Sequence record: NC_028847.1
Origin: Escherichia phage QL01
Length of the DNA: 64,000 nt
Direction: 5' to 3' (one strand)
The notes below the pieces were generated by a model, which ran no database searches, was not told the DNA's origin, and worked only from the letters and a program-made list of their open reading frames with translations. How positions within the stretch are numbered: position 1 is the stretch's first letter; each line of letters starts with the position of its first letter. Of the stretch, positions 3,312 to 49,033 are shown in pieces. A program made the position numbers and the translations under genes.

Positions 3312-3344
3312 GAAACAAAAAAGGCCCAACCTTTCGGAAGGGCC
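3312..3344 (-). terminator. intrinsic terminator (hairpin with GAAA loop plus U-run), copy 1 of 3 identical hairpins
   Basis: ggcccaacctttcggaagggcc at 3323-3344; A-run on plus strand gives U-run on minus strand. Confidence 0.5.
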
Positions 3345-3349
3345 TAGAA

Positions 3350-3904
3350 TCAGTTCTTGTAGAACCGGAATGGGTTTATGTGGAAGGCTAACATAGCCTT
3401 AGGGATTTTACGAGACAAAAGGCTCTTAAGCTTCCAACCACAGTACACGCGAAGGTAAAAGGTAATCCCACCAACCTTAAGATATGGAACTGAAGCAAAT
3501 ACACCCCAGGCGTCGTCATTCCACATCCATAACCACCCGTGATGAGCTTTATCAGGAGAACCGGATTCCACGTCGGGATTACCTCGATAATGGAATTCCG
3601 AGCTACAATCACGACCGAGTTTATGGTAAGCAAAGTTATAAGCTTTATTTCGCCATAGCCAAGCTACTCTCTGAAGATAAACACCACCCGGCATTTTCCT
3701 GATGTTAGCCCAACGTTTAATATGACCTTTATCACCGTCAATTGGATTATCGTATGTCATCATCCAATCAAAGCCGTACGGTAATTTACCTGTCTTTTTA
3801 TTGTGGAAAGGAACCACAAATGGTGCAAGGATAACAGCCAGAACCATAGAGATAAAATCCAGTGGAACCAACAGAACCCAACTCAAATATTTTAAAAGTT
3901 TCAT
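3350..3904 (-). CDS. hypothetical protein with N-terminal hydrophobic segment
   Basis: ORF 3350..4009 trimmed to ATG at 3904 (MKLLKYLSW...), downstream of terminator hairpin. Confidence 0.45.
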   Translation of the reverse strand: MKLLKYLSWVLLVPLDFISMVLAVILAPFVVPFHNKKTGKLPYGFDWMMTYDNPIDGDKGHIKRWANIRKMPGGVYLQRVAWLWRNKAYNFAYHKLGRDCSSEFHYRGNPDVESGSPDKAHHGWLWMWNDDAWGVFASVPYLKVGGITFYLRVYCGWKLKSLLSRKIPKAMLAFHINPFRFYKN

Positions 3905-3920
3905 ATATTTCTCTAAGTTA

Positions 3921-3943
3921 ACCAAAAAGCCCCAGACGGGGCT
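3921..3943 (-). terminator. terminator hairpin after internal-protein gene
   Basis: gccccagacggggc hairpin at 3929-3942 flanked by A/T runs on both sides. Confidence 0.45.
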
Positions 3944-3947
3944 TTCG

Positions 3948-4412
3948 TTATTTGATTTGTTTAGCAGACCAGATACGGTCTTTGATGATTTTCTGAATAT
4001 CTTCAACATACTCTAAGTCGTGAGCATGTGGATTATCTTTGAAGCTATGTGCTCGTGCCAGTTTCTGGCCTTCTGTTTTGATTACTAAAAGCTCTTTAAG
4101 AATTGCTTCATACTTAGAAATAATTCCTTTGGCGATATTTTTTTCTTGAGCGGCTTTAGGGTCCGCTTTTGACGCAGGTGCTTTACCTGTAGCTTTCTGG
4201 AACAATTCACCTGAGGCAGCTAGGCTTTTAAAAACTCGGCTAACAGTATTGGCATTAGTAAAACCTTCGGCTTTAAAATCTTTAATAAAACGGAAACGTT
4301 CTTCATCAGAGGCGTCTTTGTAAGAATATTTACCTGCTTGAATTGCTGCAATCGCAGCGGCTTTTACATCTGAACTAGATTGTTCAGTCAAAAATTCATT
4401 GTAAGTTTTCAT
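3948..4412 (-). CDS. internal protein (IP-like) with capsid-targeting N-terminus
   Basis: starts MKTYNEFLTE, matching the T4 IP capsid-targeting sequence as recalled (MKTYQEFIAE); own late promoter and terminator. Confidence 0.7.
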   Translation of the reverse strand: MKTYNEFLTEQSSSDVKAAAIAAIQAGKYSYKDASDEERFRFIKDFKAEGFTNANTVSRVFKSLAASGELFQKATGKAPASKADPKAAQEKNIAKGIISKYEAILKELLVIKTEGQKLARAHSFKDNPHAHDLEYVEDIQKIIKDRIWSAKQIK

Positions 4413-4438
4413 ATTATTTCCTAAGTTAGTTTACTACA

Positions 4439-4446
4439 TATTTATA
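4439..4446 (-). promoter_or_regulatory. late promoter TATAAATA
   Basis: exact TATAAATA on minus strand about 27 nt upstream of ATG at 4412. Confidence 0.5.
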
Positions 4447-4476
4447 CAAAAAAAGCCCAACCTTTCGGAAGGGCCT
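4446..4476 (-). terminator. intrinsic terminator, copy 2 of the repeated hairpin
   Basis: gcccaacctttcggaagggcc at 4455-4475 with A-run 4447-4454 (U-run on minus). Confidence 0.5.
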
Positions 4477-4526
4477 TTAACCTAGGGTAACCTTGTCGGG
4501 GTTCCACCTGCTAGGCAAGTGTTTGT

Positions 4527-4618
4527 ACGAAACGCCGGGATTCGAACCCGGTTATTAAGTAGTTGACGCCACTCAATATTTTTAAAAGGCCATATCTCGA
4601 CCATATCCGAACGTTCCG
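4527..4618 (-). tRNA. tRNA-like element (perfect T-arm, atypical body)
   Basis: minus strand CCGGG-TTCGAAT-CCCGG T-arm plus 7-bp acceptor pairing (CGGAACG/CGTTTCG), but no convincing D or anticodon arm. Confidence 0.25.
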
Positions 4619-4857
4619 TCAAAAACGCTACTCGGCTTACGGCAAAGATATTTCCTCGAATCGATAATTCGGTGCGCCGTTTCTGCTGTGATGTAAGGGG
4701 ACGTTAACAGATCGTAAAGATTTGTTAATGCCAGTCCTTACTCAGGGAACATCAGTCCGACGACTTACCGGTAGCGACCCGGTTTCTTGTTTGTTGCGCC
4801 GGTGAATGCTGGTAATCAGTCTTCATACGACGGCTTGACTATATAATAGTCTTCATT

Positions 4858-4932
4858 TGGTATCCCGCCCTGGGATCGAACCAGGACCGCAAACTTAGAA
4901 GGATCGTATGCTATCCATTACACCAGCGGGAC
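4858..4932 (-). tRNA. tRNA-Arg (anticodon UCU)
   Basis: 75 nt cloverleaf folded by hand: acceptor GTCCCGC/GCGGGAT, T-arm CCTGG-TTCGATC-CCAGG, anticodon loop CTTCTAA, encoded CCA. Confidence 0.85.
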
Positions 4933-4937
4933 GTAGT

Positions 4938-5014
4938 TGGTGACCCAGACCAGATTTGAACTGGTAACCTTTCCCTTATGAGGGGACTGCTGCTAACCAT
5001 TGAGCTACAGGGCC
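4938..5014 (-). tRNA. tRNA with CAU anticodon (Ile-lysidine type or Met)
   Basis: 77 nt: acceptor GGCCCTG, T-arm ACCAG-TTCAAAT-CTGGT, anticodon loop CTCATAA, encoded CCA; 5 nt from tRNA-Arg. Confidence 0.75.
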
Positions 5015-5751: not shown

Positions 5752-6159
5752 TTAACCCTCGTCTACAATAGTATGGGTATTAGCATTAACAATCTGCCAC
5801 CAGTCACAGTCAAAACGATTAGAACCGTAACGAGGCTTTTTCTCATTTTCGTTAATAATATCACGTAGTTCGTCTTCAGAAAATGCTTTAGCGATTAAAT
5901 CGGTATAGCCGCCACGTGGATAATAGTTATCACCTGCGAACAGAAGGAAATTTACTTTACCAGAAGGAACATATGCTTCCTTAGGATACTTGTTTCCTGC
6001 TTGGTCTACCACTTCAATATAACGGTAAGGAATATCGGTACTTTCAACCCATTGCCAAGCTGCAGCAGGGGATTCAAAAGCATCTACACCTAAACGGTTA
6101 TCTTCATCTTTAGACGGATTATTTTCATAATCCGCATATACATAATATTCAATGTTCAT
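5752..6159 (-). CDS. hypothetical protein
   Basis: 135 aa ORF. Confidence 0.5.
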   Translation of the reverse strand: MNIEYYVYADYENNPSKDEDNRLGVDAFESPAAAWQWVESTDIPYRYIEVVDQAGNKYPKEAYVPSGKVNFLLFAGDNYYPRGGYTDLIAKAFSEDELRDIINENEKKPRYGSNRFDCDWWQIVNANTHTIVDEG

Positions 6160-6412: not shown

Positions 6413-6685
6413 TTATTTTAAATAAATTGCATATTTTTTATAACCAGCCGTCTCGTGGCGCAGCCCTTTTTCATTAGCAAAACGTTCAATATTGTTAATT
6501 TGATTCTGGTCGAGTTCTGAAGTATCAAATACAAAAAAGTTTCGCTTATTGCCTAAAGTTACGTGATTAGTCAAATCGATGTTATAGAGATGATTTATAT
6601 TATCAATCATGGTCTTAACAGATTTGTTAATTTTTACTTCTTCATTAAGAATAGATTCAGCGATAAATTCTTGGTATGATTTCAT
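6413..6685 (-). CDS. internal protein (IP-like) with capsid-targeting N-terminus
   Basis: starts MKSYQEFIAE. Confidence 0.65.
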   Translation of the reverse strand: MKSYQEFIAESILNEEVKINKSVKTMIDNINHLYNIDLTNHVTLGNKRNFFVFDTSELDQNQINNIERFANEKGLRHETAGYKKYAIYLK

Positions 6686-6686
6686 T

Positions 6687-6911
6687 TTATTCAGCGCCAG
6701 CGGCTTTCAAAAGTTTTTTAAGATTGGCTATGCCGCCAGCAGAAAACGTGACCTTGCCACCTTTTTCATTGATAGAGCCAGTCAATTTAGCAAGCTTATC
6801 ACTAGGGACTTTTTTAAAATCAGCCAGTGTGCCATCAAAGGTTTTTGTAACAATTGGCAGTTCATCTTCATGTCTTTTAGCTTCGGTGATAAATTCTTGA
6901 TAAGTTTTCAT
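6687..6911 (-). CDS. internal protein (IP-like) with capsid-targeting N-terminus
   Basis: starts MKTYQEFITE; early promoter cassette upstream. Confidence 0.65.
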   Translation of the reverse strand: MKTYQEFITEAKRHEDELPIVTKTFDGTLADFKKVPSDKLAKLTGSINEKGGKVTFSAGGIANLKKLLKAAGAE

Positions 6912-6948: not shown

Positions 6949-6977
6949 ATAGTATCATGCCTATAGACCTTGTAAAC
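6949..6977 (-). promoter_or_regulatory. T4-type early promoter cassette, copy 3
   Basis: GTTTAC-N17-TACTAT agacctatcaaaac on minus strand. Confidence 0.5.
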
Positions 6978-37765: not shown

Positions 37766-38193
37766 TGTTCCTTATCCCTGATGATTACGAATTAACTCTA
37801 GAAAGCGTAGAGGCCAAAATTCCAGAAGCACAGGGACGTTTTGCTGCTCTTTCTGAAGCGCTCGAGAAAAGCGATATAAATAATCTTGTAGAGAACATGA
37901 TTGCTGAAGGCGATATCGAATGTGCTATCGCTCTTGGTTCTTTAAATGAATCAATGGCTCTTAACGAATTTATCGTTAAACACGTTTCCTCTAAAGGTGA
38001 GCTTACTCGTACTAAAGATATTAAAACCCGTCAACGTAATGCGTTCCAAACGACAGGTTTATCTAAAGCAAAACGCCGTCAGATTGCTCGTAAAGCATCT
38101 AAAACCAAACGTGCTAATCCGTCTACTCAAGTACGTGCCGAACGTAAGCGTAAGAAAGCCCGTTCTAAACGTAAAGCTTTTGGACTTAACTAA
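37765..38193 (+). CDS. 68: gp68 prohead core protein
   Basis: 142 aa with basic C-terminus. Confidence 0.75.
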
Positions 38194-38828
38194 TGAAACC
38201 TGAATTGCTCATCGAACATTGGGGACAACCAGGTGAAATTATCGATGGGGTTCCTATGTTGGAATCTCATGATGGAAAAAATTCTGGGCTTGCTCCCGGC
38301 CTTTATATAGAAGGCATTTTCATGCAAGCAGAGGTAGTTAACCGTAATAAACGCCTTTACCCAAAACCTATTTTGGAAAAAGCCGTTGCCGATTATATGG
38401 CAGAACAGGTTGCTACTAAACAAGCTTTAGGAGAATTAAACCACCCACCTCGTGCTAACGTTGACCCTATGCAAGCTGCTATCATTATTGAAGATATGTG
38501 GTGGAAAGGTAATGATGTTTATGGACGTGCACGTATCATCGAAGGTGACCATGGCCCTGGTGATAAACTAGCTGCAAATATCCGAGCTGGCTGGGTTCCT
38601 GGTGTTAGTTCTCGCGGTCTTGGTTCTTTAACTGAAACCAATAAAGGATATAAGCGTGTAAACGAAGGTTATAAATTAACCGTCGGTGTTGATGCAGTAT
38701 GGGGACCATCTGCTCCTGATGCTTATGTAACTCCGAAGCAAATTACAGAATCACAAACGGTAGAAACCGATACCAGTGCCGATGACGCCTTTATGGCTCT
38801 CGCAGAGGCCATGAAAAAAGCGTTATAA
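38193..38828 (+). CDS. 21: gp21 prohead core protease
   Basis: 211 aa, synteny and size (T4 gp21 212 aa). Confidence 0.85.
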   Translation: MKPELLIEHWGQPGEIIDGVPMLESHDGKNSGLAPGLYIEGIFMQAEVVNRNKRLYPKPILEKAVADYMAEQVATKQALGELNHPPRANVDPMQAAIIIEDMWWKGNDVYGRARIIEGDHGPGDKLAANIRAGWVPGVSSRGLGSLTETNKGYKRVNEGYKLTVGVDAVWGPSAPDAYVTPKQITESQTVETDTSADDAFMALAEAMKKAL

Positions 38829-38858: not shown

Positions 38859-39674
38859 ATGCTTAAAGAACAACTGATCGCCGAAGCACAGAATATTGAT
38901 GCTTCCGTTGCTCTTGACAGTATTTTCGAATCAGTTAATATTTCTCCGGAAGCAAAAGAAACTTTCGGCACTGTATTCGAAGCTACCGTCAAGCAACACG
39001 CCGTGAAACTGGCTGAATCTCACATCGCTAAAATCGCTGAAAAAGCGGAAGAAGAAGTCGAGAAAAATAAAGAAGAAGCTGAAGAAAAAGCCGATAAGAA
39101 AATCCAAGAAGCTGCCGGTCGTTTCCTTGACCACGTTGCTAAAGAATGGATGGCTGAAAACCAGCTGGCTGTTGATAAAGGTATTAAAGCCGAACTGTTC
39201 GAATCCATGTTGATGGGTATGAAAGAACTGTTTGTTGAACACAATGTGGTTGTTCCAGAAGAAGCAGTAGATGTTGTTGCTGAAATGGAAGAAGAACTCC
39301 AAGAGCAGAAAGATGAAACCGCTCGTCTGTTCGAAGAAGTTGGTAAGCGCGACGCGTATATTAATTACGTACAGCGTGAAGTTGCTGTTACGGAAGCAAC
39401 TAAAGACCTGACTGAATCCCAAAAAGAAAAAGTTAGTTCTCTGGTAGAAGGCATGGATTATTCCGATGCATTCGGTAGAAAAATTGGCGCTATTGTTGAA
39501 ATGGTTAAAGGTCAGTCTGACGTTGAAAACCCAATCACCGAAGCCGCTATAAATAAAAATGTAGACGATGCTGCGGCACTGAATTACATTTCAGAAGCAG
39601 TTGAAGAAAAAGGCGCTAAGCCTACCCTGTCCTTCGCGGACCTGTCTGCAATCGCAGCATCACGAATTTCTTAA
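38859..39674 (+). CDS. 22: gp22 prohead core scaffold protein
   Basis: 271 aa, Glu/Lys/Ala-rich helical protein. Confidence 0.85.
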   Translation: MLKEQLIAEAQNIDASVALDSIFESVNISPEAKETFGTVFEATVKQHAVKLAESHIAKIAEKAEEEVEKNKEEAEEKADKKIQEAAGRFLDHVAKEWMAENQLAVDKGIKAELFESMLMGMKELFVEHNVVVPEEAVDVVAEMEEELQEQKDETARLFEEVGKRDAYINYVQREVAVTEATKDLTESQKEKVSSLVEGMDYSDAFGRKIGAIVEMVKGQSDVENPITEAAINKNVDDAAALNYISEAVEEKGAKPTLSFADLSAIAASRIS

Positions 39675-47282: not shown

Positions 47283-48779
47283 ATGCAAATTCAAGTACAT
47301 TTTGATAATTTTAGTCATGTCCGTATTGAATGCGATGAATCTACATTCTACGAACTCAGAGACTATTTTAGCTTTGAAGCTGATGGATATAAATTCAACC
47401 CTAAATTTCGTTATGGTCAATGGGACGGACGTATTCGCCTTCTGGATTACAACCGTAAACTTCCTTATGGATTGGTCCCTCAAATTAAAAAGTTCGCTGA
47501 ACAATTTGAATACTCTCTGTGGATTGACCCACGTATTCTTGAACAGGAAGATATTTCTCGTGAAGATTTTGATTCATGGGTGGCTTCTCAAGAAATTTAT
47601 TCAGGGTCTACCAAGATTGAGCCTCATTGGTATCAGAATGAAGCCGTATACAACGGCCTGACAAAACGTCGCGCAATTCTGAATTTACCTACATCTGCAG
47701 GTAAATCATTAATCCAGGCACTCCTGAGTCGATATTACGTTGAGAACTATGAAGGTAAAATCCTCATCTTAGTTCCTACTACTGCACTTGTCGACCAGAT
47801 GATTAACGACTTCATCGATTATCGTCTGTTCCCTAAAGCCGCAATGCTTGGTATTCGTTCAGGTACTGCTCGTGATTCCGATGCAATGATTTATGTTTCA
47901 ACTTATCAAACCGCTATCAAGCAACCTAAAGAATGGTTTGCTCAGTTCGGTATGTTTATGAACGACGAATGCCATTTGGCTACAGGTAAATCTATTTCTA
48001 CTATCATCGAAGGCCTAACCAACTGTATGTTTAAATTCGGTTTGTCTGGTTCTTTAAAAGATGGTAAAGCTAATTTAATGCAATATATGGGTTTGTTTGG
48101 TGATGTGTTTAAGCCAGTATCCACCTCCCAGTTAATGGAAGAAGGACAGGTTACTGACCTTAAAATCAACAGTATTTTCCTTCGATACCCAGACGAATTC
48201 ACGGTTAAAATGAAAGGTAAAGATTACCAATCAGAAATCAAGGTCATTACTAAGGCTACTCGTCGTAATAAATGGGTTGCTAATTTAGCTGTTAAACTCG
48301 CTAAGAAAGAAGAGAACGTATTCCTGATGTTTAAAAACATCGAACACGGTAAAACTCTTTTTGAAATGGTTAAAGAGCAACATAAAGAAGTTTATTACGT
48401 ATCAGGTGAAGTTAATACCGAAACGCGTAATGCTCTGAAAGTAATGGCGGAAAATGGTAAGGGTATTATTGTTGTGGCAAGTTATGGTGTGTTCTCTACT
48501 GGTATTTCCGTTAAGAACCTTCACCACGTTGTATTTGCCCATCCAGTAAAATCTAAAATCATTGTACTCCAGACAATTGGTCGTGTACTCCGTAAACATG
48601 CCTCTAAATCAACAGCACAGGTGTGGGATATCATCGACGACATGGGTGTTAAGCCTAAATCAGCTACGGCTAAAAAGAAATATGTTCATTTGAACTATGC
48701 CCTCAAACACGCTTTAGAACGTATTCAACGTTATGCTGATGAGAAATTTAATTACGTAATGAAACAGGTGGATTTATGA
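47283..48779 (+). CDS. uvsW: UvsW RNA-DNA and DNA-DNA helicase
   Basis: 498 aa with Walker A LPTSAGKS and DECH box. Confidence 0.85.
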   Translation: MQIQVHFDNFSHVRIECDESTFYELRDYFSFEADGYKFNPKFRYGQWDGRIRLLDYNRKLPYGLVPQIKKFAEQFEYSLWIDPRILEQEDISREDFDSWVASQEIYSGSTKIEPHWYQNEAVYNGLTKRRAILNLPTSAGKSLIQALLSRYYVENYEGKILILVPTTALVDQMINDFIDYRLFPKAAMLGIRSGTARDSDAMIYVSTYQTAIKQPKEWFAQFGMFMNDECHLATGKSISTIIEGLTNCMFKFGLSGSLKDGKANLMQYMGLFGDVFKPVSTSQLMEEGQVTDLKINSIFLRYPDEFTVKMKGKDYQSEIKVITKATRRNKWVANLAVKLAKKEENVFLMFKNIEHGKTLFEMVKEQHKEVYYVSGEVNTETRNALKVMAENGKGIIVVASYGVFSTGISVKNLHHVVFAHPVKSKIIVLQTIGRVLRKHASKSTAQVWDIIDDMGVKPKSATAKKKYVHLNYALKHALERIQRYADEKFNYVMKQVDL

Positions 48780-49003
48780 AAACCTTTAAAGAAGTTATTC
48801 AAGAAGCATCTATTGAAAGCTTCATGGCTAAAATTGGTTCTTGTCAGACTATGGATGGTCTGAAGGAATTGGAAAAGTATTACAAAACTCGTAGTAAGGA
48901 AGCCGAACTTCGTGATTCGGATGATATTAGCGTGCGTGATGCATTGGCTGGTAAGAGAGCTGAATTGGAGTCGATGGACGACGAGGAAGAGGAAGATTTC
49001 TAA
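48776..49003 (+). CDS. uvsW.1: UvsW.1-like small acidic protein
   Basis: 75 aa immediately after uvsW, overlapping its stop. Confidence 0.6.
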   Translation: MKTFKEVIQEASIESFMAKIGSCQTMDGLKELEKYYKTRSKEAELRDSDDISVRDALAGKRAELESMDDEEEEDF

Positions 49004-49011
49004 ACAAAAAA

Positions 49012-49033
49012 GGCCCAACCTTTCGGAAGGGCC
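49012..49033 (-). terminator. intrinsic terminator, copy 3 of the repeated hairpin
   Basis: ggcccaacctttcggaagggcc with A-run 49005-49011 (U-run on minus). Confidence 0.45.

Follow-up and report, generated by a model that had tools for sequence, protein, structure and literature searches.

A family of hypothetical proteins of T4-like phages, PHROG 2280, as probable T4-type internal head proteins encoded in a hairpin-bounded accessory slot

Host immunity encounters the injected internal proteins before any other phage molecule. It was shown in 2022-2025 that the internal proteins of bacteriophage T4 are specific inhibitors of GmrSD-type restriction (PMC9391042; PMC12373910). Ip1, Ip2 and Ip3 have nothing but their tag in common, and their targets are three different GmrSD-type type IV restriction enzymes; two Ip loci and at least ten internal proteins have been described in related phages (PMC12373910; PMC9391042). 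In the tag of IPIII, residues 4 and 7 serve capsid targeting and residues 8 and 10 serve processing, the prohead protease gp21 cuts after (L/I)-X-E, and the documented T4 cleavage is at a glutamyl-alanyl bond (PMC9026906). A second described system is that of the PeSL (promoter-early stem-loop) cassettes, through which T4-like phages shuffle genome modules (Arbiol et al. 2010; PMC2839356).

Here we describe a gene that resembles both systems. It lies in a 64-kb stretch of DNA (the window, meaning the whole stretch analysed), which we assign to a Dhakavirus-type T4-like phage; the gene surroundings are 96-98% identical to those of T4-like coliphages of this type, e.g. vB_EcoM-E33, WG01 and UGJNEcP3. 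The ORF given in the preliminary description is present as a complete CDS (3948-4412, minus strand) whose 154-aa product starts with MKTYNEFLTE and belongs to PHROG 2280. It is a real gene under strong purifying selection: compared with five alleles from other phages, dN/dS was 0.06-0.22 over the whole length and 0.00-0.06 in the C-terminal half. We consider it probable that its product is the precursor form of a T4-type internal head protein whose family, PHROG 2280, has gone unrecognised as such; the protein would be injected and, by analogy, would most likely act against host defence. For packaging and processing as such our confidence is, if anything, slightly higher. The best-supported reading is that PHROG 2280 is a new T4-type internal head protein family at a third genomic place.

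The first ten codons (4383-4412, minus strand) specify the predicted capsid targeting sequence, which ends in an L-T-E prohead protease site. Y4 and F7 are identical to the targeting residues of IPIII, and L8-T9-E10 agrees with the cleavage motif, where L or I is allowed at position 8 and E, not D, stands at position 10. A strict tag search of all six frames of the window returned exactly three ORFs, at 3948-4412, 6413-6685 and 6687-6911, the latter two being further internal-protein genes on the minus strand. The gene had been described as carrying the same tag with two substitutions, and these are Q5N and I8L relative to MKTYQEFITE, the tag of the 74-aa product of 6687-6911. It had also been counted as the third tagged gene; this is right for the window and not for the genome, since the e-denV locus of a phage closely related to that of the window holds another four tagged genes, of which one is unannotated. 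In UGJNEcP3, a 132-aa ORF by the endolysin gene (locus tag 00232; L015, 2992-3390, minus strand) starts with MKTYNEFIAE and is annotated as "hypothetical"; judged by this start it is another unrecognised tagged gene, outside the window.

The tag is a property of the family. All 25 of the full-length members read, which came from Tequatro-, Dhaka-, Mosig-, Teguna- and Marfavirus and from metagenomes, start with M-x(1-2)-[Y/F]-x-[E/D/Q]-[F/I/V/L]-L-x-E, with the other tag residues varying, and an outlying relative, P0030, is without the tag. Position 8 is L throughout PHROG 2280, whereas it is mostly I in canonical internal proteins. After the L-x-E of the tag comes A, G, S, Q or L, which precedes a conserved S-[D/E]-V-K-A-A-A. 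The residue after the predicted cut is Q in the window allele, which counts against the processing reading because the documented T4 cleavage is glutamyl-alanyl. In several alleles a second L-x-E stands a few residues beyond the tag (LNEAVLNE, LKESLISE). Co-variation of the tag with the internal proteins by genus was uninformative, as the canonical internal proteins of all genera examined have the same pattern, MK[T/S]Y.EF[I/L].E.

A tag-like start was also seen elsewhere in the window, on a UvsW.1-like protein (PHROG 1143; 48776-49003, plus strand) that begins with MKTFKEVIQE, which resembles a capsid targeting tag with an I-Q-E cut site, and continues with ASI; its T4 counterpart begins with MLLEFKQFLYE, again followed by ASI. 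UvsW.1 is, to our knowledge, not known as a packaged protein, and tag resemblance alone is therefore not proof of packaging. The UvsW.1 start may be a coincidence or something overlooked.

These observations bear on the alternative that the 154-aa product is a late cytoplasmic protein that never enters the head, and that its N-terminal likeness is a by-product of a shared, recombination-prone gene-start module in hyperplastic regions. Such a module would be in keeping with the UvsW.1 start and with a 22-nt initiation region (repeat D4) that is found at the start of the 154-aa gene (4407-4428) and again, with 82% identity, before the untagged DUF7338 gene (3899-3920); furthermore, recombination at promoter, stem-loop and start modules is documented in T4-like phages (PMC2839356). 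The tag is, however, kept at the protein level across genera, with the targeting and cleavage positions retained and the residues between them varying. In addition, the second L-x-E of several alleles resembles the redundant propeptide cleavage sites of giant-phage head maturation (PMC9026906), and in the AlphaFold model residues 1-9 have no structure and stand apart from the folded part. We regard this alternative as very improbable.

The protein would find the partners that packaging calls for in the same genome, which encodes both a prohead protease and a scaffold. The prohead core serine protease, a gp21 homolog (38193-38828, plus strand; Pfam Peptidase_S77, E = 6e-103), is predicted to cut after E10, and the scaffolding core protein, a gp22 homolog (38859-39674, plus strand; Pfam T4_CASP, E = 7e-90), is the predicted docking partner of the tag. 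Homologs of gp23 (capsid) and gp20 (portal) are in the window as well. The likeness to T4 IPI, IPII and IPIII covers a 10-residue tag with matching functional residues and (L/I)-X-E as its cut site, the size range, Lys/Ala richness and a pI of about 9.5, as well as non-essential genes of lineage-variable presence in a hyperplastic region of a phage that also carries gp21 and gp22.

The predicted mature product comprises residues 11-154 (144 residues, coded by 3951-4382), with a mass of 15.9 kDa and a pI of 9.5, and is very close to T4 IPII and IPIII in composition and pI. With 14.3% K and 14.9% A in the 154-aa protein, the earlier characterisation of its body as Lys/Ala-rich is borne out, as is that of a body unlike the other two tagged proteins, likeness to which ends after the first 10 residues. 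The AlphaFold model (pLDDT 79.7) has a disordered segment at residues 1-9 and an N-domain of three helices (13-67), which a disordered linker rich in K, A and P (72-84) connects to a C-domain (85-151) that is a generic antiparallel helical hairpin. Two domains joined by a disordered linker set the protein apart from the T4 internal proteins; outside the tag, neither sequence nor profile comparison detected any similarity to these. Searches of Pfam and NCBIfam with the 154-aa protein gave nothing above threshold, and the mature part had no detectable match to solved or predicted folds of known function, nor a link by fold or sequence to a known inhibitor. A BLAST hint of homology between the mature part and T4 IPII (residues 1-43 only) failed in hhalign, where the probability was 23% and only the tag region aligned.

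An anti-defence role is plausible by analogy with the T4 proteins, and analogy is its whole basis, because the mature part is without homology to IPII or to folds of known function. A domain engaged in an arms race would not be expected to have a dN/dS as low as that of the C-terminal half (0.00-0.06), which counts against such a role. This value fits better with a structural partner, as does a generic helical hairpin under very strong purifying selection, and it speaks for the alternative that the protein is packaged and processed and works inside the head, either in DNA charge neutralisation or condensation or in core and head morphogenesis as proposed for IPIII. A Lys/Ala-rich, basic protein of pI 9.5 would suit such work; lysines of internal proteins contact DNA phosphates by NMR (PMC3012670), and IPIII mutants show head-assembly aberrations (PMC9026906). 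This alternative has to contend with a gene that is dispensable at the lineage level, being absent from T4 by a clean indel, and with frameshifted or truncated alleles at or near an A7 run; moreover, an anti-restriction target is now known for each of the three T4 internal proteins (PMC12373910). On balance we think a purely in-head function unlikely.

A homology search, which the preliminary description had called for, led to PHROG 2280 and to 510 phage records and attached no function to the gene. The PHROG 2280 match ("unknown function") extended over the full length of the protein (E = 6e-53), and relatives from Yersinia and Klebsiella phages and from metagenomes fell into the same PHROG; the PHROG record gives no function, and the tag and what it implies are absent from it. 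By tblastn the family was found in 510 phage records, and the matches listed were "hypothetical" or unannotated. All but one of the named cluster members are called "hypothetical", "uncharacterized" or "Phage protein", the sole informative name being that of a UniRef entry for a Klebsiella phage homolog, "Internal head protein". A HMMER search of 1.8 billion representative proteins returned only 16, and those that could be traced were all from T4-like phages. Members were found in Tequatro-, Dhaka-, Mosig-, Teguna- and Marfavirus; the RB18 ortholog is "RB32ORF132c", the gene is absent from T4, and in Yersinia phage fHe-Yen9-01 it directly follows a tagged paralog, in tandem at the same locus. 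Literature searches for virion proteomics, N-terminal sequence, a transcript map or naming gave none for any family member. A tagged family whose products are almost all "hypothetical" and which about 500 sequenced phages carry, including many candidates for therapy, is a candidate for a new anti-defence protein, and the tag provides a simple annotation rule.

Late expression of the gene is predicted from a consensus promoter that is conserved in relatives. The exact minus-strand late promoter claimed for it was found at 4439-4446, where the T4-type element TATAAATA lies 26 nt upstream of the ATG and is one of 4 minus-strand matches in the 64 kb. Both strands together hold 19 matches, compared with 8.0 +/- 3.0 in shuffled sequences (0 of 100 shuffles reached 19), and 14 of the 19 are intergenic with an ATG 18-52 nt downstream. 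The gap of 26 nt is of the same spacing class as that of the sites before the scaffold and gp24-like genes. A Shine-Dalgarno sequence, AGGA (4419-4422, minus strand), stands 6 nt before the ATG, inside the repeated initiation region. In the E. coli-type loci examined (Tequatrovirus, Dhakavirus and Mosigvirus), a GC-rich hairpin with a T-run is directly followed by TATAAATA or AATAAATA, 34-48 nt before the ATG, and in the Klebsiella phage loci the hairpin is followed by CATAAATA. Among 50 T4 late promoters, A at -13 is the commonest natural variant (9 sites vs 32 exact; PMC2988020). The consensus late promoter is peculiar to 3948-4412 among the three tagged genes, as 6687-6911 and 6413-6685 are without TATAAATA and sit behind a sigma-70-type promoter at 6949-6976 (minus strand; TTTACA, a 16-nt spacer and TACTAT, with TG).

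The locus itself differs from those of ipI (57B-side) and ipII-ipIII (e-denV) in lying downstream of tRNA, rnaD and rnaC genes. On the minus strand the order is as in T4, with gene 1, 57A and 57B, the two other tagged genes, trna.x-like ORFs, and tRNA-Met and tRNA-Arg (4858-5014), continuing with the homologs of rnaD (4671-4787; 88% identity to T4 by alignment) and rnaC (4526-4664; 98.6% identity), the 154-aa gene, the DUF7338 gene and an e.8 homolog. Between 3000 and 7000, Rfam recognised only the two tRNAs, having no model for rnaC or rnaD. A 46-aa ORF (4482-4622) that overlaps with the homolog of rnaC is probably not a real gene.

Both hairpins that had been described as flanking the gene are present and conserved in relatives. 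The upstream one (4451-4478, core 4455-4475, minus strand) folds with -15.2 kcal/mol (z = -1.9), is followed by seven T (4448-4454), and is copy 1 of a 31-nt direct repeat (D1, 4446-4476). Its T4 homolog is a hairpin that lies some 50 nt past rnaC, and it is probably the terminator of the tRNA/stable-RNA unit; by this homology we read it as the end of that unit and not as an element specific to the 154-aa gene. The downstream hairpin (3926-3945, minus strand), AAAGCCCC-GUCU-GGGGCUUU followed by UUGG, folds with -15.8 kcal/mol (z = -4.3), as well as which no shuffle folds. It is related to the RB18/T4-type hairpin but has a short loop, and a hairpin was found 3' of the gene in all relative loci examined. 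A consensus scan listed 3926-3945 on the plus strand only, the U-tract on the minus strand being short (UUGG after paired U's) and below threshold. We predict that it is a terminator, probably a leaky one.

Copy 2 of the 31-nt repeat (3315-3345, minus strand; 97% identity) closes the slot and is followed by an early, sigma-70-type promoter, TTTACT...TACTAT, for the e.8 homolog. The window slot thus holds two genes, the 154-aa gene and that for DUF7338, bracketed by 4446-4476 and 3315-3345. In RB18, the remainder of the promoter, the gene and the hairpin lie between 35-bp direct repeats, TTAGCCCCGACC(G/A)AAAGGTTGGGGCTTTTTGGTAT, and T4 has exactly one copy of this repeat with the same outer flanks and no gene. 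Homology between T4 and the window takes in rnaD, rnaC and the hairpin and breaks off within the promoter, at position 4444 of the window. Because RB18 has direct repeats where T4 has a single copy, and because the window slot is bracketed by the 31-nt repeat, we take the gene to be an accessory, cassette-like module in a hairpin-bounded slot downstream of tRNA/rnaD/rnaC, a slot that by these alignments is empty in T4. Its presence and absence at a repeated hairpin make it a concrete example of the gain and loss of a cargo gene.

The likeness to PeSL cassettes lies in an accessory ORF between repeated stem-loop terminators whose stems are of the GGGG...CCCC type, in a precise indel that leaves a single element (RB18 vs T4, as in RB49 vs phi1), and in a module that carries its own promoter and terminator. 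In contrast to PeSL, the upstream stem-loop is accompanied by the late TATAAATA and not by a sigma-70-type early promoter, which occurs only at the downstream copy, 3315-3345. The window contains three exact copies of the 21-nt hairpin core, GGCCCTTCCGAAAGGTTGGGC, on the minus strand (3324-3344, 4455-4475 and 49013-49033), whereas shuffled sequences contain none. The copy at 49013-49033 follows closely on the end of the UvsW.1-like gene, and the element looks like a dispersed, reused terminator.

The gene had also been described as a self-contained cassette with an insulated monocistronic late transcript. The cassette nature agrees with the RB18 repeats and the single T4 copy; insulation, on the other hand, is doubtful, as the upstream hairpin ends the tRNA/stable-RNA unit and the start codon of the DUF7338 gene lies 21 nt past the downstream hairpin with no recognisable promoter before it. 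Strict insulation of the 154-aa transcript is therefore probably wrong. The DUF7338 gene (184 aa; 3350-3904, minus strand; Pfam PF24027, E = 6e-63), for which the same start is annotated in UGJNEcP3, would most likely need read-through of the 3926-3945 hairpin for its expression, because a promoter scan between this hairpin and the start codon found none.

In an alternative account of the architecture, which would fit any function of the protein, the late transcript covers more than one gene: much of it would continue past 3926-3945 into the DUF7338 gene and end at 3315-3345, and read-through from tRNA/rnaC would add to it. The only promoter-scan match upstream of DUF7338 within the 154-aa gene is a weak 9-of-12 site (4032-4061), DUF7338 shares the ribosome-binding region, the minus-strand U-tract of the hairpin is short, and copies of the 31-nt repeat enclose both genes of the slot together. 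Yet the hairpin is strong and conserved, and DUF7338 could have a MotA-dependent middle promoter that is invisible to a simple scan. We hold these considerations to be evenly balanced.

In some relatives, such as fDHCT2 (L016, 1990-2080) and L006, the DUF7338 gene is internally deleted, leaving MKLLK and a stop together with the original 3' end, and the tagged gene is the sole intact occupant of the slot. Loss of DUF7338 through the hairpins was considered for these relatives and rejected, as the deletion in fDHCT2 is internal and both ends of the gene remain.

Returning to the reading that we favour, a packaged and processed internal head protein, the course of events can be outlined as follows. 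Late in infection, RNA polymerase loaded with gp55 would start at TATAAATA, and the mRNA would be translated from the AGGA site. The first ten residues, with Y4 and F7 as targeting residues, would dock the precursor on the gp22 scaffolding core of the assembling prohead, where gp21 would cut after L8-T9-E10. The 144-residue, basic, two-domain helical product would then stay in the head with the DNA, be injected with it into the next host and, if the analogy with T4 Ip1, Ip2 and Ip3 applies, disarm a first-line host defence. We infer late transcription, packaging, cleavage, injection and the anti-defence role alike, the last being the weakest step. More tentatively, and as a reading less likely than not, we suggest that PHROG 2280 marks a third internal-protein locus at the tRNA/rnaC-e.8 junction, that its product is an injected inhibitor of a defence without a matched counter-measure, and that the unit of hairpin and TATAAATA is the late-promoter counterpart of PeSL, moving head-targeted cargo genes between phages.

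Several observations concern the history of the gene. An A7 run (4138-4144, minus strand) lies at the border between linker and C-domain. The database relatives P0007, P0008 and P0010 are frameshifted exactly at this run and encode the tag, N-domain and linker only, through either sequencing error or real truncation; the cluster members P0049 and P0078, known by length and not by sequence, are also short, with 97 aa each. Compared with the window gene, the allele of vB_EcoM_005 (L009) has a dS of 1.32 in the N-terminal half and of 0.13 in the C-terminal half. The gene is a mosaic, and the data point to a recombination breakpoint near the disordered linker. Finally, a metagenomic protein of 94 aa, P0009, is chimeric, with an N-terminal part homologous to the product of window ORF 5752-6159 (minus strand) joined to the last 30 residues of the PHROG 2280 family, which implies that in some phage a deletion of about 1.5 kb, as read from this protein, fused the counterparts of ORF 5752-6159 and of the 154-aa gene.
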